A DNA stretch of 64,000 nucleotides from Escherichia coli (GTDB lineage: Bacteria; Pseudomonadota; Gammaproteobacteria; Enterobacterales; Enterobacteriaceae): assembly GCF_003790525.1 (NCBI RefSeq), contig NZ_CP033635.1; one strand, given 5' to 3'. Below the pieces are notes generated by a model, which saw nothing but the letters and a program-made list of their open reading frames with translations, was not told the origin of the DNA and searched no databases. Both the position numbers and the translations under genes were made by a program. Positions 10,157-64,000 of the stretch are shown piece by piece (within the stretch, counting starts at the first letter, position 1; every line of letters begins with the position of its first letter).

Positions 10157-10981
10157 ATGATCATCGAAAAAGTCATGAACAATAATTGTGTACAGGCATC
10201 GATGAATGGACAGGAGGTTATCATTTCTGGGCCTGGCGTCGGTTACAACAAAAAATATGGAATGTCGGTCCCTGAGCATCCGGCTAACCGGATTTTTTAT
10301 GTCAGAAATGAACAAAAAAATAAACTCTACAAATTGATTGAACATGTGGATATTGAGTATGTTTTTGTTGCCGAAAAAATAGTGCAATATGCGGAGAACA
10401 ATCTCGAAAAAAATCTCAATCCATCGCTACTATTGATTCTTGCTGATCACATTTCGAATGCAATATCCCGAGTCGCTTCAGGCATACAAATTAATAATGT
10501 TTTCCTTGATGAAATCAAAGCGTTGTACAAAGCAGAGTATGCGATAAGTCGCGATGCATTAACTATCATTAATGAGCAATTCAGCGTTCAACTTCCTGAT
10601 GATGAGATTGGTTTTATAGCATTGCATATTTTAAATAATTATGAAAATTCAGTTGATTATGAATCAGTACGGATTATTGAGTTGTCGCAAATAATCACGG
10701 GGCTTATTGAAGTTGTTTATAACAGAAAGGTGGACAGAAGTTCATTTAATTATTCCAGGTTCATGATACACCTTAAATATTTTTCAAGTCGCGTATTATG
10801 TAATGAAAAGATAAAACAAAAAGATATTGGTGACATCTATGAGCAGTTTCTTGAGAAAGACATCCTGTTACAGCGCGCAATTCATGAAATTGAACGGTAT
10901 CTGTATGCCACTTTTAAATATGAATTAATTTTAGAAGAAAAACTATATCTCTCAATTCGTACCAAAGTATTAATGGACTAA
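10157..10981 (+). CDS. BglG/LicT-family PRD-domain transcription antiterminator
   Basis: 275 aa from ATG 10157 (MIIEKVMNNNCV..., GGAG 7 nt upstream); N-terminal CAT RNA-binding motif KVxNNN and PRD-like segments; the ORF-track start 10100 lies inside the terminator hairpin. Confidence 0.8.
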   Translation: MIIEKVMNNNCVQASMNGQEVIISGPGVGYNKKYGMSVPEHPANRIFYVRNEQKNKLYKLIEHVDIEYVFVAEKIVQYAENNLEKNLNPSLLLILADHISNAISRVASGIQINNVFLDEIKALYKAEYAISRDALTIINEQFSVQLPDDEIGFIALHILNNYENSVDYESVRIIELSQIITGLIEVVYNRKVDRSSFNYSRFMIHLKYFSSRVLCNEKIKQKDIGDIYEQFLEKDILLQRAIHEIERYLYATFKYELILEEKLYLSIRTKVLMD

Positions 10982-11012
10982 TTATATATAACATTTATAT
11001 GAGATAACCCAC

Positions 11013-12593
11013 ATGAAACAAAAGAAAGCCTGGAGTTTTTTTCAGAGCCTGGGAAAGGCATTCATGTATCCCATTGCTCTGCTAAGTGTATGTGGCATGA
11101 TGCTAGGGCTGGGAAGTGGTTTAGCCAGTGATGATATGGCAAAGTTAATTCCATTTCTGGCTATTCCAATAATTAAAACCATACTTGATTTCATTGTTAG
11201 TCTTGGTTTGTTTGCCTTTGTTAATTTACCTGTATTGTTTGCGATAGCGATTCCCTTAGGATTATTAAAAGATAAAGAGGATAAAGCCTATGGTGCTTTT
11301 TCTGGCTTAATTGGTTTTATGGCGATGCATCTGGGAACGAACTTTTATCTTAAACAGCACGACTTATTGGTCGCTGCTGACCAAATGTCGACACATGGGC
11401 AAACCATCATTCTGGGGATCCAGTCCTACAATACCAGCGTGTTAGGGGGAATTGTTGCTGGGTTATTAGTCGCCAGCATGTATAAAAAGATCGTTAATTT
11501 ACGCATTCCTGAATCATTAGGTTTTTATAGCGGCCCACGTCTGGTGCCTATCATTACACTGATTGTGATGAGTGGATTTGGTCTGATCATCCCTTTTATC
11601 TGGCCGCCGTTTTTCAATCTTTTCATGCTCATTGGCCACTGGATTTCAACTTCCGGTCCTGTTGGCTATTTTTTCTATGCAGTCGCCGAACGCGTGACGA
11701 TACCTTTTGGTTTAAATCACCTGGTGACGTCAGTTTTCCGCTTTACCCCCATCGGCGGATCGGCAGTGATCGGCGGCGAAGAGTATTATGGCACCCTGAA
11801 CATGTTTATGGCGTACGTCAAAGAGAATGCGGTCATTCCGCTGGATTTGGCGGGGAAAATGGAACAGGGCAAACTGATGATTCAGTATGGTCTGGCTGGT
11901 GCCGCGCTGGCGATGTATCGCACTGCTCATGCTCAAAACAGAAAAGCTATCAAAGCATTGCTTATTTCCGGGGTGCTTACAGTCATTATTGGCGGCGTCA
12001 GCGAACCGATTGAGTTTCTGTTCTTATTTGTCAGTCCACTGCTGTTTGTCTTCCATGCATTTATGAATGGATTCGCCAACATGGTCTTGCCATATATGGG
12101 CGTGAAGATGGGATTTACTGGCGATCTGATTCAATTTATTAGCTTTGGCGTATTGCGTGGCACAAGAACAGGTTGGCCAATAGCGGTGTGTGTCGAAGTG
12201 GCCTATTTCTTTATTTATTACTTTGTGTTCCGTTGGACTATTCTCAAATTTAACCTGATGACGGTAGGCCGTGAAGAGTCCAGTCCTGTCACGCTGAACG
12301 CTCATGAGGATACGGCTATAGCGGATATCCCAACTCCTGATAAATCAGAGCTGCAAGCGGCGGAGCAGATGGTTAAGGCACTTGGTGGTAAAGAGAATAT
12401 TAAGTCACTGGATAATTGCGTAACTCGTTTACGTTTAACAATCGCAGATATGGGATTGCTTGACGAGGCTGCAATAAAAAGAGCCGGCGGAATTGCGGTT
12501 GTTAAACTTGATCAAAATACCCTACAAGTCATTATCGGTACTAAAGTCATCGCCTTGCGTCGGGATATGGATAACTACATGGGGATATGCTGA
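11013..12593 (+). CDS. PTS glucose/glucoside-family EIICB permease (no EIIA domain)
   Basis: 526 aa polytopic membrane protein with C-terminal EIIB motif NCVTRLRL; similar in architecture to MalX/PtsG-type EIICB. Confidence 0.85.
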   Translation: MKQKKAWSFFQSLGKAFMYPIALLSVCGMMLGLGSGLASDDMAKLIPFLAIPIIKTILDFIVSLGLFAFVNLPVLFAIAIPLGLLKDKEDKAYGAFSGLIGFMAMHLGTNFYLKQHDLLVAADQMSTHGQTIILGIQSYNTSVLGGIVAGLLVASMYKKIVNLRIPESLGFYSGPRLVPIITLIVMSGFGLIIPFIWPPFFNLFMLIGHWISTSGPVGYFFYAVAERVTIPFGLNHLVTSVFRFTPIGGSAVIGGEEYYGTLNMFMAYVKENAVIPLDLAGKMEQGKLMIQYGLAGAALAMYRTAHAQNRKAIKALLISGVLTVIIGGVSEPIEFLFLFVSPLLFVFHAFMNGFANMVLPYMGVKMGFTGDLIQFISFGVLRGTRTGWPIAVCVEVAYFFIYYFVFRWTILKFNLMTVGREESSPVTLNAHEDTAIADIPTPDKSELQAAEQMVKALGGKENIKSLDNCVTRLRLTIADMGLLDEAAIKRAGGIAVVKLDQNTLQVIIGTKVIALRRDMDNYMGIC

Positions 12594-13768
12594 TGGATGT
12601 TTTTAATACTCCTATTTCCCGCAAAGGAACATATTGTACCCAATGGGACTTTTGCGAGGACAGATTTGGTGTAAAAGATGTATTACCATTCTCTATTTCA
12701 GATATGGATCTTCCGATACCAGACGCTATCACCAGAGCATTAAAAAAACGTCTGGAACACCCGATTTTAGGGTACAGCCGTTGGCAGCATGATGACTATC
12801 TGAATGCGATAGTCAATTGGTATCATCAACAATATAAAACTGAAATCAAACCAGAATGGATCACCTATAGCCCAAGCGTGATGTACTCCATTGCTAAAGC
12901 AATAGAGTTATTGACATCGCATGGTGATAATATTCTCGTTTTTACACCTGTCTATAATGCATTTTTTGATATAATTAAACATAGCGAGAGAAATATTCTG
13001 ACAGCCTCTTTGATTATAAAAAATGAGGGGGGCTACGCTATCAATTGGCAAGATTTTGATCTTAAGATTCAAAGCGCAAAGATGGTGTTATTATGTAATC
13101 CTCATAACCCGACAGGAACAGTCTGGTCGGAAGAAGAACTGCATAAAATCGCTGCAAGCTGTACAAGGCATAATGTCTGGTTATGTTCAGATGAAATCCA
13201 TAGTGATTTTGTTTTTAATCGTAGCTTTACATCCGCGCTTAAAATAAAAAAAGAAAAAGTAGTAGTATTTAACTCGATATCGAAAACATTTAATGTTCCT
13301 GCACTAACAGGATCGTATATGATTTCAACTGACGATAATTTTAATCATAAGTTCAGAACGATATCGAGGTATCGCGATTTTGTAAACTCCCCATCAGTAC
13401 TGAATATAATTGCAACTATTATTGCCTATAACGAATGTGAGGGATGGTTAAAGTCATTAAAGGCACATATTGCCTCTAACATTCAATTCACCCAGCAGTA
13501 TCTGAACGAAAACACTCCAGAATTGATCGTAAGGCCAGCTGATGGTTGCTATTTTTCGTGGATAGATTGCTCTGCTATTGGTTATCCCTTTGATGAATTC
13601 TACAGTCGATTAATTCATGAAGGCAAAGTGGGCATTATGGCGGGGAATGTCTATGGAACGGAGGGGGAGGGCTACCTTCGTCTGAACCTGGCCTGCGGTC
13701 GAGAAAAATTATATATGGGGCTTACGCGTCTTGCGAGTGTAATTAAAAATATTAATCAAGGAAAATAA
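12587..13768 (+). CDS. MalY/PatB-family PLP-dependent aminotransferase / C-S beta-lyase
   Basis: 393 aa; N-terminus (TYCTQWDF..LPFSISDMDLP) parallels E. coli MalY (GTWCTQWDY..LPFTISDMDF); overlaps the EIICB stop by 7 nt. Confidence 0.8.
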   Translation: MLMDVFNTPISRKGTYCTQWDFCEDRFGVKDVLPFSISDMDLPIPDAITRALKKRLEHPILGYSRWQHDDYLNAIVNWYHQQYKTEIKPEWITYSPSVMYSIAKAIELLTSHGDNILVFTPVYNAFFDIIKHSERNILTASLIIKNEGGYAINWQDFDLKIQSAKMVLLCNPHNPTGTVWSEEELHKIAASCTRHNVWLCSDEIHSDFVFNRSFTSALKIKKEKVVVFNSISKTFNVPALTGSYMISTDDNFNHKFRTISRYRDFVNSPSVLNIIATIIAYNECEGWLKSLKAHIASNIQFTQQYLNENTPELIVRPADGCYFSWIDCSAIGYPFDEFYSRLIHEGKVGIMAGNVYGTEGEGYLRLNLACGREKLYMGLTRLASVIKNINQGK

Positions 13769-13770
13769 AA

Positions 13771-14367
13771 ATGAACAGCACGGATCTTATCCATCTCATT
13801 AAACATTTTATGCGTAACGAACATAAAGCAGTTGAAGAAGTTATTGATTCCCCCCTTTCGGAGGTCGCAAATTTAATTAAAGTATTACAGTCTTGTCAGG
13901 GGAAAGTTGTTTTTATTGGTGTCGGTAAGTCCGGTATTATTGCCCGAAAACTCGCCGCAACATTTGCCAGCACTGGAACTCCCTCGTTTTTTGTTCACGG
14001 TACGGAAGCGGTACACGGCGACCTTGGAATGGTGGCGAAAGACGATGTTGTTATTCTTATTTCAAACAGTGGTGAGACGGCGGAAATCCTGGCGACACTG
14101 CCTAGTCTGAAAAAAATGGGTAATTATTTGATCTCTTTTACACGCAGTCATCACTCATCGCTTGCGATAAGTTGTGATTTATCCGTTGAAATTCCCGTAA
14201 AAAGTGAGGCGGATAATTTAGGTTTAGCGCCGTCATGCTCATCAACAGTCGTTCTGGTTGTTGGTGATGCGGTGGCGCTTGCGCTCTCCGAATTGAAAAA
14301 GTTTACTCGTGCTGATTTCGGCTTATATCATCCAGGAGGTGCGCTCGGTATTAAAGCAAACTCATAA
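13771..14367 (+). CDS. SIS-domain sugar-phosphate isomerase (single SIS domain, KdsD/GutQ-like)
   Basis: 198 aa with GVGKSGIIARKLAATFASTGTPSFFVH, the SIS phosphosugar-binding motif. Confidence 0.75.
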   Translation: MNSTDLIHLIKHFMRNEHKAVEEVIDSPLSEVANLIKVLQSCQGKVVFIGVGKSGIIARKLAATFASTGTPSFFVHGTEAVHGDLGMVAKDDVVILISNSGETAEILATLPSLKKMGNYLISFTRSHHSSLAISCDLSVEIPVKSEADNLGLAPSCSSTVVLVVGDAVALALSELKKFTRADFGLYHPGGALGIKANS

Positions 14368-14429
14368 TTTCAAAATATAAATACAGTAACCGGTCACGCC
14401 ATCTTTTGGGGTGGCGTTCTTTGAAGTGA

Positions 14430-15386
14430 GTGTCAGCTATGAAAAATGTTCTGGTCACCGTCCCCAGCTTTTCAGCACGCTGTGTTTCCGCCAGCAAGTT
14501 GCTAAGAGAGAATAATTTTAATCTTATTATTAAGAATAATGTGGAGCATCTGCTTAAATCAGAATCCACTGCATTACGAGAATCTATTTGCGCGGTCATC
14601 GCCGGAAAAGATTGTTATCAGGCGGACACGCTATCATTGCTGTCTGGTGTGAAAATAATATCGAGATTCGGGACGGGGATAGACAATATTGATCTTCGTG
14701 CGGCACAGCAATCCGGTATTGTTGTCAATAATGCGGTTGGGATTAATTCAAATGCGGTTGCGGAATTTATCATTGGACTTATCTTCGCGAGCATGAGAAA
14801 TATCCCCGGTAGCTATCATGCGATGCAAAATGGTTATTGGGGCGAGTCGCATGGCTGCGAGTTACAAGGTAAACGTATTGGCCTGCTTGGCTACGGCAAT
14901 ATTGGCAAAACACTGGCGAAAAGGTTATCTGGTTTTGATGTTGAGCTTTTAGCTTTTGACAAACAACCCGATTTCCAGGCCGCAGGCAAAGATGGAGTTC
15001 AGTTCGTATCAATTGAAGATATCTTTATGCAGTCTCATGTCATCATCGTTCTTTTGCCATTTTCTCCGGAGCTGGAGAACTTCATTAGTCATAAATATTT
15101 GTCGATGATGCGCAATGGTGCTCTGATCATCAACGCCGCAAGGGGAAAGTTGCTGGATGAGGGTGCTTTACTTCAGGTAATTGAAGAACGAAATGTTTTT
15201 GCAGCACTGGATGTGTTTAGCTCTGAACCGCTAGCGCAATTTAGCCCATTGCTACATGCCAAGAATATCATTACAACGCCGCATATTGCGGCCGCCACCG
15301 TTGAGTCATACCAGCAAACCGGGATATACGTTGCCCAGTCGATAATTGATTACTTCGCAGGAAGGGAGATAAAAAACGTGCTGTGA
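14430..15386 (+). CDS. D-isomer-specific 2-hydroxyacid dehydrogenase family protein (NAD-binding)
   Basis: 318 aa; Rossmann GxGxxG (LLGYGNIGK) and catalytic-domain motifs typical of the SerA/PdxB/GhrA family. Confidence 0.75.
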   Translation: MSAMKNVLVTVPSFSARCVSASKLLRENNFNLIIKNNVEHLLKSESTALRESICAVIAGKDCYQADTLSLLSGVKIISRFGTGIDNIDLRAAQQSGIVVNNAVGINSNAVAEFIIGLIFASMRNIPGSYHAMQNGYWGESHGCELQGKRIGLLGYGNIGKTLAKRLSGFDVELLAFDKQPDFQAAGKDGVQFVSIEDIFMQSHVIIVLLPFSPELENFISHKYLSMMRNGALIINAARGKLLDEGALLQVIEERNVFAALDVFSSEPLAQFSPLLHAKNIITTPHIAAATVESYQQTGIYVAQSIIDYFAGREIKNVL

Positions 15387-31227: not shown

Positions 31228-33461
<2,234 letters not shown>

Positions 33462-56433: not shown

Positions 56434-57859
56434 TAATGCCAGTCAGTTAAGCAACTGACTGGCTCTTTTTCGGGGCTGTGGGGTATTTCCAGGGCCTCTC
56501 CTTTACCACTCTCGGGAAGGCCCTTTCCCTTCTTGTCGGTAATTTCACAAGTTGTCCCATACTTGCAAGATCGCGCATCAGCTCCGGTATACGTCCCGGT
56601 GAAGCGCCCTGCAATGTCATCAGCATTCTCATCACCATTCCACATGATTCTGAGAAACTCAGTTGATTCGGCCAGTAACCTTTCAGATATTCCGCCATTT
56701 TAATCATCTGATATCTCACCAGATTATAAGCCAGTAAGACACCCCACAGCTCTTGCTCCACAAGCTCCGGTTTTTTACTTCTCAGCGTCAGCCTGCTCAG
56801 TTGCATCGTCTGTTTTATCTCCCTGTATCCCAGTTCGATTTCCCAGCGATGACTGTACAGATCCGCCATTTCTCCTCCGGGGAAGCGCATGGCGTCCGTC
56901 ATCGACGTCAGCAGATGGCAGACTTTTCCTTTGCGCGTCACGGTCAGCAGGCGGGCTGTCACTTCATTTCCCAGTCCCGGCCACTTTTTTCGTGCCTGCG
57001 GGCTGGTTTTCAGCTTCACCAGATGATCGCCTTTACCCAGTTTTCTGATCTCTTCATATTGCGCTCCCTTTCTGAGAGGTATCATCCAGTGGCGGTGTTC
57101 TCCCGCCAGGCTCCAGGCATTTAACAGTCCCAGTGAGTAATAACCTTTATCCATTAACGTCAGAGTGTTATCGCCGGTTTGTTCTATAAGTTGCTCAGCA
57201 AGCTCATTTTCGCTGTTCTTCATCGTGCCGAAGGCTGCAGCCGTCAGCAGATGGCTGGTCAGTTCCATCTGGCAGACCATTTTGACCTGCGGGTAGAGCG
57301 CCGGGTTCCCGGCATGTGTCTGGCGGGGGAAGGCTGCATCGTTCTCTGGTGTATCCGGTGTGCGCCAGAACACACCATCGATGGCCAGCAGGGTCAGGCC
57401 GCACCAGTGCGGATGCGGCGTGGCGTTATGCCAGAGCTGCGCTGTTTTCGTGAACACGCGGCGGACAGCCTCACTTCCCAGGCGCTGGCGGGCCTGAATA
57501 ACGGCACTGGGGGCAACGAAGGGGCGATTGCCCGGCAGCATGATGTCCAGGCGATTCACAATCTGGTGAAGAGGTTCTTTACGCTCAAGCGCCATGCCAA
57601 CAATACACCAGACCATCATTTCGAGGGGAAGACGGCGCTTGCGTAGCGTTACAGTACCTGATTCGGCAAGGCAACGAGAGATGAGTTCGGGGTCGAGGTA
57701 ATCCCCCAGAGAAGTCAGTGGGTTACGCAGAGAATCGTAACGGGATACCAGATCAAGAGCCTGTCCAATGTGCATAAAAAAATCCGGAAACAAGTGAGCG
57801 TTTCCGGATTCTTACACAGCCACTGGATCGGTCAACTGATCCTTAACTGATCGGCATTA
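56434..57859 (-). mobile_element. IS4 insertion sequence (1426 bp) with imperfect 18-bp terminal inverted repeats
   Basis: Ends taatgccagtcagttaag ... cttaactgatcggcatta (16/18 complementary); encodes an IS4-family DDE transposase; flanked by a 14-bp direct repeat. Confidence 0.9.
56447..57775 (-). CDS. insG: IS4 transposase
   Basis: 442 aa from [31 protein letters not shown], which I recognise as the IS4 transposase N-terminus. Confidence 0.9.
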
Positions 57860-57891: not shown

Positions 57892-58764
57892 TTACCAGCG
57901 GCCAGACGCGCCGCCACCGCCAGAAGAACCGCCACCTCCGTTAAATCCGCCGCCAGTTGAGCCGCCACCAGAACCGCCGCTGTCTGAATGATAACTTCTA
58001 CCTGATGCTTTTTTCTGTGGGACACATAACCAGGTAAAGACCATAATGATGGTGAAAGCAAAAAAGAAGGAAAATACAGCAATGGAAAAAGTTTGATCGG
58101 AGAACAGGAATAAATCTATAAGATAGACTGTTGAAATACAAACACTGCTTTTAAATGCCCGACAAAAATTATTGCCTTGATGAAAAAACCAGAAAGGGAA
58201 GAACATCACTGCAAATACCCAAAAAATAGCAAAGTAGTAATGATCACTGGAAGACGCTGATTCACTTTCTGAAGGATTAGACGAATATTGGTGTTGTGAA
58301 GTGAGTTGGTTATTCAAAGCGATTATAGCTAATTCTAATCCCTTAGCTAATTTTTGTTTTTTAAAGGCGGGTATCATGATGCTACGGATGATATTGCCAG
58401 CCAGAGCATCGGTTACCTTTTCTTCCAGCCCATAACCTACCTGGATGCGGACAGTACGATCCGACCAGGCAACAATGATCAGTATCCCATCATTACGTTT
58501 GGCATCTCCTAAACGCCAATTGTCAAAAACTCTTGTAGCATATTGTTCAATAGAATCGTCTCCGGTGGATGGCACTATTAATACAGCGACCTGTGCCCGT
58601 GTTTTTTGTGTAATATCCTGCAGCTGTTGTGTTAGTGATTGTTGTTCAGACGTGCTTAAGGTACCAGTAATATCGGTCACCTGTTGGCGCAGCTCCGGCA
58701 CAGCAATTTGCTGGGCAAGCACAGGAAGGCACCATAAAGTGAGTAGAAAAAGGATTATACGCAT
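57892..58764 (-). CDS. ygcG: TPM-domain membrane protein, YgcG-like (signal peptide, TPM domain, TM segments, Gly/Ser-rich C-terminal tail ending GRW)
   Basis: 290 aa from ATG 58764 ([17 protein letters not shown]); length as recalled for K-12 YgcG; the ORF-track start 4 codons upstream is a TTG and is rejected. Confidence 0.75.
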
Positions 58765-58769
58765 AACGA

Positions 58770-59918
58770 TCACCAACGGTCGGATGAACCGCCGCCTCCT
58801 GAAGAACCGCCGCCACCGCGGAAAGAATTTTTCGACGAAGAGCGAGAATGAGCATTACGATTCCCCGTTTTCCTGTTGCTTTTTTCTCCTGACCCCAGCT
58901 TAAGATTGCCAGTAAATTTGGCCACAATGATCAGCAGAACGATGCCAGCAATGGTTATTGGGCCGATAAAATGATCAATTAACCCAATAATTGTTGAGAT
59001 GAATGCTATATCTTTATTACTGGCGAATACCAGGCACCATCCCACAACAATTATCAGCAGCACGACAAACAATGAGTTTCGTTCGGATTGAGAAACCTGC
59101 TGAGTCGTCTTTTGTTTTTTCACTTTAGCGTTTTTATTTTTTGGGGCCAGCATCATAGGAAATACGCGATACATATGAAAAATTACCGCGAGACGCTGCC
59201 AGCAGGTTGCTGCGAAAAATAAACTAAAACAAACGAGCGATACCCGCCGAATGATGACATCATCCTGAAAGAAGAAAAACCAGACCATAGGAGTAATCAT
59301 CGATATCATCCATATGCCAGGCCCGGGACGGCTGGTAAATCGCCAGAGGACAACGATGGCAACGATCATCAGTAATGTCCAGGCAAGACATGGCAGCGAG
59401 CGTTGCGGATTAGCAAACAGATGATTGGCTAAAGCATCCAAAGGGCTAAGATTCGCTTTTATATAGGTAAACTGTGCGATGCCTTCAATTCCCTGCGTTA
59501 ACCCGGAGAAGAGATTATTTTTTTTGAATTCCGGTTGCATATGGTAATGAACAATTTGCGCAGCTTGTTCCGGTGGCAGCATCTCTTTCAGTCCATGCCC
59601 AATCTTCATTGACGCCAGCCCTTCCGGCCAAACGACGAGAATTAAGATACCTTCGCCGTACCGCTTCTCTCCAACGGGTTTCCAGTGATATAACCCGTAG
59701 CTCTGAGAGGCTGCAAGTTTAATGTTTTTGCCCCCTGTGGTCGGCGTAACCAACACGGCCACCTGGAAGTGGTTTTGCTGCTCGAGAGTCTGTAATTGTT
59801 GATTTAAAGCAGTTTGTTCTTCTGTCGTTAATGTCCCGGTTAAGTCAGTTACTGAAGGCAATTGTTCAGCGAATGCCTGGAAACCATATAGCATCAGAAG
59901 TAAGAGAAAAATACGCAT
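58770..59918 (-). CDS. TPM-domain membrane protein, paralogue 2 (extended multi-TM region, Gly-rich tail ending DRW)
   Basis: 382 aa; signal peptide [20 protein letters not shown]-like core ([20 protein letters not shown]), tail [15 protein letters not shown]; AAGGA RBS; 5 nt upstream of ygcG-like gene. Confidence 0.75.
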
Positions 59919-59932
59919 TTCAATTCCTTTTG

Positions 59933-60826
59933 TTACCAGCGCCCGGAGGCGCCACCGCCGCCAGATGAACCGCCGCCGCCGCGGAAATTGTCATTGTCGA
60001 ATGAAGAGGATGACGATGACGAATAGTGGGAGGAAGAATTACTTCTTGTATGGCGTGATGGCTGGTTGGTATTACGCATCGAATCCCGAACCTTTTTGCC
60101 GAAGGGAGTAAAAGCGATGGCGACAGCCAGGAACGGTGTGGCGAAGCAGAGTAATGTTGCGAGCACTCCCCAGCTTCCGCTGAAACCTGCTATAGGTAAA
60201 ACAAAGGCCAGTACAATAGCTGCGAAGCAAATCAGTCCCAGCGTTTTGATATATCCTCTGGCAGAAATAAACGTCAGTATTATCGCCCAGACTAACAAAG
60301 CCCACCAACCGCTAAAGGGCAAAGGGTGATCGGTCGGTGTTATCGTTGCTGAATTATTCCCCGTCAGGCGACTTTCAATATCGTTGATCCCCTTTTGTAA
60401 ACCACCAGCCAGGTCGCCTTTTTTAAATGCCGGAATAATACTGTTGCGAATAATTTTCCCGGACTGTACATCCGTAATAATACCTTCCAGTCCGTAACCG
60501 ATTTCAATACGCACGGTATGATCCTGCCAGGCGACTAACAGTAGAACGCCATCATCGCGGTCTTTATCACCCGGTTTCCAGCTATCGAATACCCGCGTTG
60601 CGTACTGCTCGATGGTTTCATCGCCTGTTGTATCAACCACTAACACGACCAACTGTGCGTGGTTTTTTTGCGTCAGGGCTTTAATCTGGTTGGTCAGGGT
60701 GTTTACTTCGCTGTTTGTTAATGTGCCGGTTAAGTCATTCACATACTTGGGGGATTCAGGTACTGGAATTTGTGTGGCAAACACAGATGAACAGAAGAAA
60801 GCCATAAGGAAGATAAAATTTCGCAT
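59933..60826 (-). CDS. TPM-domain membrane protein, paralogue 1 (Ser-rich + Gly-rich tail ending GRW)
   Basis: 297 aa from ATG 60826 (MRNFIFLMAFFCSSVFA); TPM-like core (LTGTL..QLVVLVV..IEIGYGLEGI); tail [15 protein letters not shown]; 13 nt after the lemA stop. Confidence 0.75.
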   Translation of the reverse strand: MRNFIFLMAFFCSSVFATQIPVPESPKYVNDLTGTLTNSEVNTLTNQIKALTQKNHAQLVVLVVDTTGDETIEQYATRVFDSWKPGDKDRDDGVLLLVAWQDHTVRIEIGYGLEGIITDVQSGKIIRNSIIPAFKKGDLAGGLQKGINDIESRLTGNNSATITPTDHPLPFSGWWALLVWAIILTFISARGYIKTLGLICFAAIVLAFVLPIAGFSGSWGVLATLLCFATPFLAVAIAFTPFGKKVRDSMRNTNQPSRHTRSNSSSHYSSSSSSSFDNDNFRGGGGSSGGGGASGRW

Positions 60827-60839
60827 AGAACTTCCCCGC

Positions 60840-61442
60840 TTAATGCGCATTAGCATTCTGGCTAAAATCTATTGTTGGGGCTTTACTTACTGCGGTGACA
60901 TCATCCGGCAAATAATTTTTCTTTGGTGTGTAATCCATGACCTTTGCGGTTAATACAGCGGGGAATTTGCGGATAGTGACATTATATTGTTCAATGGCTT
61001 TAATATATCTTCCTCGCGCAACGGCAATTCTATTTTCACTTCCTTCGAGCTGTACCATTAAGTTTTGATAGAGTTCCTGAGCTTTTAACTCAGGGTAACG
61101 TTCACTAATTATCGTTAACTGACCGAGAGTGCGAGACACCTGCGCCTGGGCTTGTTGCCAGGCTTGTAATTTTTGCGCATCTCCCGGAGCTTGCTGAAGA
61201 TCGCTACTGGCGCGATTAGCCTGGCTACGTGCCAATGTTACGGCTTCCAGTACCTCTTGTTCATGGCTAGAATAACCTTTAATACTGGCGACAAGATTAG
61301 GAATAAGATCGGCGCGACGTTGATATTGATTCAATACCTCAGACCAGGAGGCGTTAACCTGCTCATCATAGGTTTGAATATCGTTATATCCACAGCCTGA
61401 TAAATTGACAATAAATATAATTACGATGAATATCCTGAGCAT
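60840..61442 (-). CDS. LemA-family protein (probable lipoprotein, lipobox LSGC)
   Basis: 200 aa; N-terminal hydrophobic segment with Cys at position 17 in an LSGC lipobox; coiled-coil-rich LemA-like body; first gene of the 4-gene minus-strand cluster. Confidence 0.7.
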   Translation of the reverse strand: MLRIFIVIIFIVNLSGCGYNDIQTYDEQVNASWSEVLNQYQRRADLIPNLVASIKGYSSHEQEVLEAVTLARSQANRASSDLQQAPGDAQKLQAWQQAQAQVSRTLGQLTIISERYPELKAQELYQNLMVQLEGSENRIAVARGRYIKAIEQYNVTIRKFPAVLTAKVMDYTPKKNYLPDDVTAVSKAPTIDFSQNANAH

Positions 61443-61614: not shown

Positions 61615-62286
61615 ATGCAGTACCCGATTAACGAGATGTTCCAGACCCTGCAAGGTGAGGGTTACTTTACCGGCGTCCCCGCCATTTTTATTCGTTTACA
61701 GGGATGCCCGGTTGGCTGTGCCTGGTGCGACACCAAACACACCTGGGAAAAGCTTGAGGATCGGGAAGTCTCCCTTTTCAGCATTCTGGCGAAGACCAAA
61801 GAGAGTGATAAGTGGGGGGCGGCGAGCAGTGAAGATTTGCTGGCTGTCATTGGTCGGCAGGGATATACCGCGCGGCATGTGGTGATTACGGGTGGTGAGC
61901 CTTGCATTCATGATTTGCTGCCACTGACTGACCTGCTCGAAAAGAACGGTTTTAGCTGCCAGATCGAAACCAGCGGTACTCATGAAGTACGCTGCACGCC
62001 GAATACCTGGGTTACCGTATCGCCAAAGCTGAACATGCGCGGCGGCTATGAAGTGTTGTCACAGGCACTGGAGCGAGCCAACGAAATCAAGCATCCAGTG
62101 GGACGCGTACGTGATATTGAAGCACTGGATGAACTACTGGCAACGCTGACCGATGATAAACCGCGAGTCATTGCACTCCAGCCGATTAGCCAAAAGGATG
62201 ATGCCACACGTTTGTGCATTGAAACCTGCATTGCGCGTAATTGGCGTTTGTCGATGCAAACACATAAATATCTAAATATTGCCTGA
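61615..62286 (+). CDS. queE: 7-carboxy-7-deazaguanine synthase (radical SAM)
   Basis: 223 aa; CxxxCxxC-type motif CPVGCAWCDT; divergent from lemA. Confidence 0.9.
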   Translation: MQYPINEMFQTLQGEGYFTGVPAIFIRLQGCPVGCAWCDTKHTWEKLEDREVSLFSILAKTKESDKWGAASSEDLLAVIGRQGYTARHVVITGGEPCIHDLLPLTDLLEKNGFSCQIETSGTHEVRCTPNTWVTVSPKLNMRGGYEVLSQALERANEIKHPVGRVRDIEALDELLATLTDDKPRVIALQPISQKDDATRLCIETCIARNWRLSMQTHKYLNIA

Positions 62287-62331
62287 TTTGATTATTCATC
62301 ATTAATATTTAACGTTCAGGTTGAAAAACAA

Positions 62332-62354
62332 TCGCCCCGTTTTACAGGGGCGAT
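62332..62354. terminator. Bidirectional hairpin terminator (tcgcccc-gttttaca-ggggcga) between queE and the LacI-family gene
   Basis: 7-bp GC-rich perfect stem between convergent genes. Confidence 0.5.
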
Positions 62355-62371
62355 GCAAGATAGTGACGGGA

Positions 62372-63379
62372 TTATCGGTAGCGTTTTTGTAGACTGGCAG
62401 GAAGATAACGCTGTAATGGGGATGGCGTTTCACCTTCAATCAGTTGCGAAATAAGTTCAAAGCAGTGAAAAGCAAGTTGGCGATTATCCTGTTGTATTGT
62501 GTCGATTCTTACCGAAAGTGAATCATACAAGTAATGATCATCAAAACTCGCCAGGTGGATTTTACTGTCGAGTAAATTATATTGGCTCATATAGCGCAGA
62601 ACGCCTTCCAGTAATCCACAAGCGGCAGTGAATAAGGCTTTAGGGGGACGTCCTAAACGAGCGCATAGCGCGGCAAACATTTCATAGCCTGAGCTCGGAT
62701 GATAATTACCGTGAATAATCCATTCAGGTTGTAGCGTTACTCCGGCTTGCTGCAAGCCTTGTGTAAATCCTTCCAGTCGATCGCGAGTCGGTGACAAACG
62801 GGGTTGTCCGCCCAGAAAATAGAATTCATCCGGGTGACTCCGTGCAATATCTGCCACCAGAGCGGCGGTGGGAGAAACAGAGTCAGTAATGACCAATGGC
62901 AATGTGCTGCCGTTCATGTGGCGATCGAACAACACAACAGGTAATTGCTCGCTAAGTTTTTGATAGTCATTATCATGCAGCATACTGGATGCGACGATTA
63001 ACCCATCAACCTGGCGGGCAATCATATTGTTCACCACCATTGTTTCCTGTGAAGGATTTTCATCAGTACAGGATATGAGGAGTTGGACTCCCGCTTCCCG
63101 ACACAATGTTTCCAGTTCATGGGAAAATACTGCAAATCCGTAGTTAGTGATTTCAGGAACGACGAGACCAATGGTGTGACTGCGGTTGTCCCGTAATGAG
63201 CGGGCATGAATGCTGGGCTGATAATGCTGCTGTTGGGCAATACTCAGCACACGCTCACGCGTTTCCTGCGCAACACGTAACTCTTTGCCACGACCATTGA
63301 GAACCAGACTGGCGGTTGCTTTCGACACTCCCGCCAGTTCAGCAATGTCTTTAATAGTAACGCGTTTGGTTTTTCTCAC
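62372..63379 (-). CDS. LacI-family transcriptional repressor, sucrose-operon type (CscR/ScrR-like)
   Basis: 335 aa; N-terminal [26 protein letters not shown] resembles Cra/ScrR-type LacI regulators; immediately downstream of a GH32 hydrolase gene in the same direction. Confidence 0.7.
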
Positions 63380-63404
63380 GACGAGGATCCGTAATTCAAA
63401 ACCC

Positions 63405-64000
63405 TCATTCTACCATGCAGGCGCGTAGCGACCAGTAGTGTAACGTGACGTCAGACTCGCCCTGTAATATCAGCGAAGCTGGATGATGGGGAAAATAACG
63501 ATTGCTCATTACGCCTTCGCCATTATTGATGAATATCTCTATGCTGGAACTGTCACAGAGAATCTTCAGTGACGTTACGCTTCCTCGCCAGTAACGAGTT
63601 AGTTTCTCTTGCCCTGCAAGGCTTTTCCTCTGTAGTTGAATACCATCGTCATTAAGATGCAGTGCCAGTGCGTTGCCAAAATTCAGATGTAGCTCGCCTG
63701 ATGGAATGATGTCCATTTCCAGACGTTCAATTGCGACAGGCGGCGCATGATCCGCTTTTCCTTGCCAGAAGTGTTCAGCTTCACGCAGTTGCGCGAGTTC
63801 CCTGATTGGCATCTGAAATAATTTTCCCTTCTGGAATGAGAGTTCGCGAAAACAGGTCATTTGATGCTGCCAATGATGCTTTCTGGTTGGTTGCAACATC
63901 TCTTCGCCATCAGGAACCCCCATCCAGCCGACCAGTAATCGTCGCCCGTCCGGGGCTTCCATCGTCTGTGGTGCATAGAATTCAAATCCCGCATCCAGCT
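63405..64000 (-). CDS. Glycoside hydrolase family 32 (sucrose-6-phosphate hydrolase/invertase-like), C-terminal part; gene continues past the window edge
   Basis: Reading frame stays open to the window edge (..[27 protein letters not shown]..); C-terminal region resembles the beta-sandwich domain of sucrose hydrolases. Confidence 0.6.

Follow-up and report, generated by a model that had tools for sequence, protein, structure and literature searches.

An apparent PTS-dependent scr sucrose cassette next to queE in Escherichia coli

Understanding of the scr regulon dates from the 1980s-90s. It is organized in two transcription units, scrK and scrYABR, and in pUR400 inverted repeats bracket the scrY promoter while one further repeat lies upstream of scrK (PMC11251922). 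ScrR is released from these operators by D-fructose or fructose-1-phosphate, and inducible growth on sucrose is known for the homologous loci of the SCU-147 clone and pUR400 (PMC11251922). The location of a scr locus beside queE in place of CRISPR2 is also already known, including for E. coli SMS-3-5. SMS35 was described as being without CRISPR2 owing to an inserted sucrose operon (Touchon & Rocha 2010, PMC2886076), and a 6.7-kb scr segment was described as adjoining queE in B2 and F strains, where it replaces the CRISPR2.2 array without being flanked by IS (Stephens et al. 2024, PMC11251922). Trevino-Quintanilla 2007 and Diez-Villasenor 2010 are cited there for the scr locus of E. coli B2/F strains. 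A K-12-type strain given the cloned scr locus grew fast on sucrose, and faster still once scrR had been removed from the clone by BamHI digestion (Stephens et al. 2024, PMC11251922). Some scr carriers are sucrose-negative because of an IS3 in scrY (PMC11251922). In a 2025 survey of urological isolates, scr genes were present in the ygcE-queE region of 47% of the strains (PMC12736100).

The DNA analyzed here, referred to as the window, is a stretch of 64,000 nucleotides of an E. coli chromosome that ends within a gene. For everything to the right of window position 64000, a 25.7-kb locus (L001) of the SMS-3-5 genome (NC_010498.1) was used. The window differs from NC_010498.1 at 4 of 63,714 compared bases, and the remainder of the module, read from SMS-3-5, is presumed to be the same in the present strain. 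The differences are located at 31762, 32055-32056, and 57956; the last of these replaces Ser by Thr within the Gly/Ser tail of one of the TPM proteins described below. The source of the window would be SMS-3-5 or a very closely related strain, and the four differences might also reflect a different version of the SMS-3-5 sequence. The terminal 1,714-bp region of the window is 100% identical in SMS-3-5 and 23 other complete genomes, in which its genes carry the annotations 'LacI family regulator' and 'sucrose-6-phosphate hydrolase'. This final part of the window is almost certainly the right-hand end of a classical PTS-dependent scrK/scrYABR regulon of the pUR400/Klebsiella type, carried as a 6.7-kb cassette between queE and ygcE, and no contrary evidence was found.

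The preliminary description of this DNA had placed a GH32 gene fragment, followed co-directionally by a LacI-family repressor, beside queE. Both genes were recovered using ORF, Pfam, and NCBIfam searches, and both are on the minus strand; the order of hydrolase and then repressor is correct for that strand, which had been left unstated, and reads from right to left in the window. The repressor gene, scrR, is located at 62372-63379 (minus strand) in the ORF listing, and RefSeq gives it identical coordinates (WP_001232702.1). It is a complete gene with a GTG start and encodes a 335-aa LacI/GalR-family repressor of the fructose/sucrose-responsive subfamily. A LacI HTH (PF00356, E 1.1e-15) was found with Pfam at residues 8-56, and the effector region matched Peripla_BP_1/3/4 (PF13407/PF13377/PF00532) at residues 68-333 of 335. 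This is the LacI/GalR layout of an N-terminal HTH and a periplasmic-binding-protein-like domain, at the usual length of ~330-340 aa. Against the NCBIfam model TIGR02417 ('fruct_sucro_rep', 'D-fructose-responsive transcription factor'), scrR scored 462.8 bits with a cut-off of 389.6. On the Cra equivalog model, scrR reached 237 bits, which is below the cut-off of 385. The solved structures nearest to ScrR are those of Cra/FruR (e.g., 7X7H, E 1.5e-44).

The sucrose-6-phosphate hydrolase gene (scrB, GH32) is represented in the window by its 3' part at 63405-64000 (minus strand; Pfam), comprising codons 273-469 and the stop codon. The stop codon occupies 63405-63407 and the frame is open up to the window edge, with the gene start lying beyond it at window-equivalent position 64814. 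The 197 codons in the window (63408-63998) are the last 42% of the gene. They match the end of the Glyco_hydro_32N domain (profile positions 244-307, the last 64 positions; E 8.3e-15) and, partially, Glyco_hydro_32C (E 4.1e-08) in Pfam. Since the profile matches are strong and both genes are annotated in a 100% identical genome, scrR and scrB are not chance ORFs. The hydrolase gene is upstream of scrR, from which it is separated on the minus strand by a spacer of 25 nt (63380-63404) that was read from the sequence and contains a BamHI site, GGATCC, at 63386-63391. Such a small distance is consistent with the scrYABR transcription unit known from the literature.

The scrB-scrR pair is convergent with queE (61615-62286, plus strand; ORF listing), a conserved core gene that is annotated in both SMS-3-5 and K-12 and bounds the insertion site on the left, outside the module. 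Homology with K-12 runs to 2 nt beyond the queE stop codon, as determined by BLAST. In the interval where scrR and queE converge, a predicted intrinsic-terminator hairpin was located at 62331-62354 (minus strand) using a terminator scan. It has the sequence ATCGCCCC-TGTAAAAC-GGGGCGAT, followed by TGTTTTTC, and consists of an 8-pair stem with 6 G-C pairs and then a T-rich tail. The hairpin lies 17 nt beyond the scrR stop codon, and its RNA fold has an energy of -15.9 kcal/mol (z = -3.0 compared with shuffled sequences). Transcription would be expected to end at this hairpin 3' of scrR.

The rest of the module had been expected beyond position 64000, and in the matching SMS-3-5 genome scrA, scrY, and scrK are indeed found there. 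The minus-strand genes are, from left to right of the map, scrR, scrB, scrA, scrY, and scrK, followed by ygcE and yqcE. Full-length scrB (L001 13119-14528, minus strand) encodes 469 aa and scored 548 bits on the TIGR01322 scrB_fam model (cut-off 356). The three genes lying wholly off the window are also on the minus strand: scrA encodes a sucrose PTS EIIBC (TIGR01996, 650 bits, cut-off 559), scrY a sucrose porin (PDB 1A0S, E 1.7e-226), and scrK a PfkB-type fructokinase (NF006957, 506 bits, cut-off 450). The match of ScrY to 1A0S, the solved sucrose porin of pUR400, has a score of 756 bits over 413 residues. In SMS-3-5, none of the five scr reading frames is interrupted or truncated. The SMS-3-5 annotation contains no IS within or beside the scr block, and its scrY is without the IS3 insertion.

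These genes distinguish between the two kinds of sucrose locus, csc and scr, that the preliminary description had named together; the scr type, with a PTS and a porin, was retained, and the csc type, with a LacY-like permease, was not. A csc-type, non-PTS module would consist of an invertase (CscA) followed by a repressor (CscR), with a LacY-like CscB permease and CscK. Its cscA-cscR pair is made up in the same way, with a GH32 hydrolase gene and then a gene for a LacI-family repressor, and the kinase of the present block is labelled 'cscK: fructokinase' in some RefSeq records. Nevertheless, the transporters encoded upstream are the sucrose PTS EIIBC (TIGR01996, 650 bits) and the ScrY porin (1A0S) rather than an MFS permease, and the hydrolase scores above the cut-off of TIGR01322, the model for sucrose-6-phosphate hydrolases. 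Moreover, csc is located at another chromosomal site, where it is mutually exclusive with D-serine use (PMC11251922). The csc assignment is considered extremely improbable. A csc regulon would have a symporter as its only sucrose transporter, and a PTS EIIBC and a porin were found.

It had also been asked whether the hydrolase might group with levanases or inulinases and whether the downstream genes might have no relation to sucrose. The latter is excluded by scrA, scrY, and scrK, which are sucrose genes in SMS-3-5. If the hydrolase were a levanase, an inulinase, or a fructo-oligosaccharide enzyme, the module would serve fructan rather than sucrose utilization; GH32 does contain fructan-active enzymes, and the 197-aa fragment in the window, taken alone, matches GH32 generically. 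The full-length protein, however, scored 548 bits on scrB_fam versus 202 bits on the beta-fructosidase BfrA model, for which the cut-off is 900. The sucrose-6-phosphate hydrolases 7VCO (E 4e-79) and 6NU7 lead its ranking of PDB relatives, and the matches to an exo-inulinase (E 1e-29) and an endolevanase (E 2e-13) are far weaker. ScrB thus groups with sucrose-6-phosphate hydrolases by TIGR01322 and the PDB ranking, has no signal peptide that is obvious from its 469-aa sequence, and is coupled with a sucrose PTS, and the probability of a fructan module is judged to be close to nil. By family scores and PDB ranking, the enzyme falls outside the fructan-active members of GH32. The GH32 catalytic motifs are present in full-length ScrB of SMS-3-5 as NDPNG at residue 40, RDP at residue 159, and ECP at residue 218, which supply Asp, Asp, and Glu, respectively.

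Operator sites were searched for using the 14-mer CTAAACCGGTTTAG, with up to 3 mismatches allowed in the 25.7-kb SMS-3-5 locus and up to 2 in the 64-kb window. Three putative ScrR operators were detected in SMS-3-5, and these are the only operator-like matches in the 25.7 kb. Two are upstream of scrY, at L001 17521 (CTAAACCGGTTTAG, 0 mismatches) and 17580 (CTAAACCGATTTAG, 1 mismatch), and bracket a predicted TTGCTC-18-TATTAT promoter; the third is upstream of scrK at L001 18596 (TTAAATCGGTTTAG, 2 mismatches). The count of 3, compared with 0.9 expected at up to 3 mismatches, is not significant by itself, as 7 of 100 shuffled sequences also reached 3. The argument for these operators is therefore based on the placement of the sites and on their match quality of 0-1 mismatch. 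No match with up to 2 mismatches was found in the window, as expected because both regulated promoters lie outside it.

Read in terms of the characterized members of the family, sucrose would enter the periplasm through the ScrY porin and would be taken up and phosphorylated by ScrA (EIIBC-Scr) to sucrose-6-phosphate. ScrB would then convert sucrose-6-phosphate to glucose-6-phosphate and fructose, and the fructose would be phosphorylated by ScrK. From what has been published on such loci, ScrR would repress through 14-bp palindromes resembling CTAAACCGGTTTAG around the scrY promoter and before scrK, and would be freed by D-fructose or fructose-1-phosphate. The scrR gene would be the last of a scrYABR transcript, co-transcribed as in the published systems and ending at the hairpin described above.

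The part of the scr accessory block that lies in the window is 62289-64000, in which both genes are on the minus strand. In SMS-3-5 the block has a total length of 6,721 bp (L001 12003-18723), and it would extend to window-equivalent position 69009. Using BLAST with the SMS-3-5 locus, homology with K-12 was found to end at L001 12002 (window 62288) and to resume at L001 18724, and in scr-negative genomes the match of a queE junction probe ends at query base 202, which is also window 62288. The block stands in place of 1,365 bp that are found in K-12 between ygcE and queE. The preliminary description had stated that genes of this kind are absent beside queE in K-12; this is correct, and the ygcE-queE spacer of K-12 carries CRISPR repeats instead. 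Eight matches to the type I-E CRISPR repeat were located in the replaced K-12 segment and none in the SMS-3-5 locus, and the missing CRISPR array between ygcE and queE is explained by the scr cassette at that place. Both cloning primers of Stephens et al. match this locus exactly, scrR6689R at window 62337-62357 and scrK43F at L001 18675-18697.

Of the 5,426 complete E. coli genomes in which the distribution of the block was determined, 986 contained it over at least 80% of its length, at 95-100% identity, and 839 had the queE-scrR junction, so that roughly every sixth E. coli genome has scr at queE. Approximately 40 of the copies are plasmid-borne. Copies at other sites share a 6,596-bp core that starts exactly at the scrR stop codon. 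Two of these were compared with the scr cassette, to which they are 98.3-98.5% identical: the plasmid copy of pJJ1887-5 (L004 4001-10596), which has a frameshifted scrR and an IS1 nearby, and a copy at a second chromosomal site in KMi025 (L005 4001-10597), beside a gene of the H-NS family. The frameshift in scrR on pJJ1887-5 would predict constitutive expression. The pJJ1887-5 and KMi025 contexts have further left-flank sequence in common, which indicates that these copies are part of a different, larger segment.

No terminal repeats common to the three compared genomic contexts were found, and no recombinase, integrase, or IS was found at the edges of the block at the queE site. The G+C content of the block (~46-48%) is slightly below that of its flanks and is uninformative. 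The sharp edges of a 6.6-6.7-kb segment without signs of mobility, together with the plasmid and second-site copies, could also be read as the result of a recombination mechanism that has yet to be described, or of selection tying the disappearance of CRISPR2 to the acquisition of scr in phylogroups B2 and F. This reading is regarded as very unlikely.

Even if the end of the window belongs to a scrK/scrYABR regulon, the cassette might be silent or decaying in this strain, as a cryptic remnant. Sucrose-negative or slow-growing strains do exist among scr-positive E. coli (PMC11251922), and the scrR of pJJ1887-5 is an example of a frameshifted copy. Against this, SMS-3-5 has five intact frames, the catalytic motifs and putative operators are present, and there is no internal IS. 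The block is also 98.8% identical to that of JJ1886, presumably an ST131 strain. Furthermore, B2 isolates bearing scr, including the ST131 isolate SCU-182, are sucrose-positive, and the loci of F-group ECOR strains are intact (PMC11251922). A silent cassette is very unlikely on this evidence. With a functional scr regulon as the preferred reading, the strain would be expected to be sucrose-positive. For annotation, the value of the assignment is the predicted fast sucrose-positive phenotype, and the eno-ygcE stretch is marked as a hotspot at which E. coli lineages differ.

Several other features of the window were recorded. An IS4-family transposase gene is located at 56447-57793 (minus strand), between eno and a ygcG-like gene; the eno-IS4 junction is shared by no more than 77 genomes among the 5,426 and thus marks a lineage-specific insertion. 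The segment at 57892-61442 (minus strand) contains lemA and three paralogous TPM-domain (YgcG-like) genes with Gly/Ser-rich tails. K-12 has only ygcG and is without the extra 2.8 kb of this lemA/TPM segment; UTI89 is among the 1,102 of 5,426 genomes in which 80% or more of that extra sequence was covered. The preliminary description had counted three independent strain-specific features within ~8 kb around eno-queE, and the unequal frequencies of the IS4 junction (77 genomes), the lemA/TPM segment (1,102), and scr (986) are compatible with such independence. Homology with K-12 stops 33 nt into lemA. The K-12 gene yqcG ('cell envelope stress response protein', 46 aa; K-12 locus L002 9558-9698) spans this 5' remnant of lemA (window 61410-61442), and its residues 12-22 (HVKTFTKIIFI) align with the LemA start, MLRIFIVIIFI. 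It may be that yqcG arose as an ORF when lemA and two TPM genes were deleted. One of the TPM genes, at 59933-60856 (minus strand), is an uninterrupted ORF of 307 aa with a C-terminal tail like those of its paralogues. RefSeq gives it as a partial pseudogene ('missing C-terminus') at window-equivalent 60155-60826, a call that looks doubtful. Elsewhere in the window, a five-gene block at ~10157-15386, between three tandem tRNA-Met genes and amiC, contains genes for a PRD-domain regulator, a PTS EIIC, a MalY/PatB-family protein, a KpsF/GutQ-family isomerase, and a phosphoglycerate dehydrogenase. It looks like another accessory sugar-utilization island.

Four known systems were used for comparison. 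Cra (FruR) is similar to ScrR in belonging to the TIGR02417 subfamily, in the related logic of its half-sites, and in having a fructose-phosphate effector. It differs from ScrR, which is a local repressor within its own operon and has the operator core AAACCGGTTT, a core that presumably differs from the Cra box. The csc system of E. coli EC3132/W (cscB, cscK, cscA, cscR) likewise has a GH32 enzyme, a LacI-family repressor, and a PfkB fructokinase, and also serves sucrose use. It has a proton symporter with neither porin nor PTS, the substrate of its hydrolase is unphosphorylated sucrose, and it is located at another site, whereas the scr block has a PTS EIIBC and a porin. The scr genes of pUR400 (Salmonella) and of the Klebsiella pneumoniae chromosome comprise the identical set of five genes, with matching order and orientation and the same two transcription units. 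With the pUR400 type the present locus also shares two 14-bp inverted repeats around the scrY promoter and one upstream of scrK. Unlike pUR400, the present copy is chromosomal, at queE-ygcE of E. coli, and it is an orthologue rather than an identical sequence. The 'native' scr locus of E. coli B2/F strains occupies the same site, where CRISPR2 (ygcE-ygcF) is replaced, and is likewise ~6.7 kb without a flanking IS. The present allele has diverged by ~1.2% from the common B2 allele, e.g., that of JJ1886, and is otherwise without substantive difference from it.
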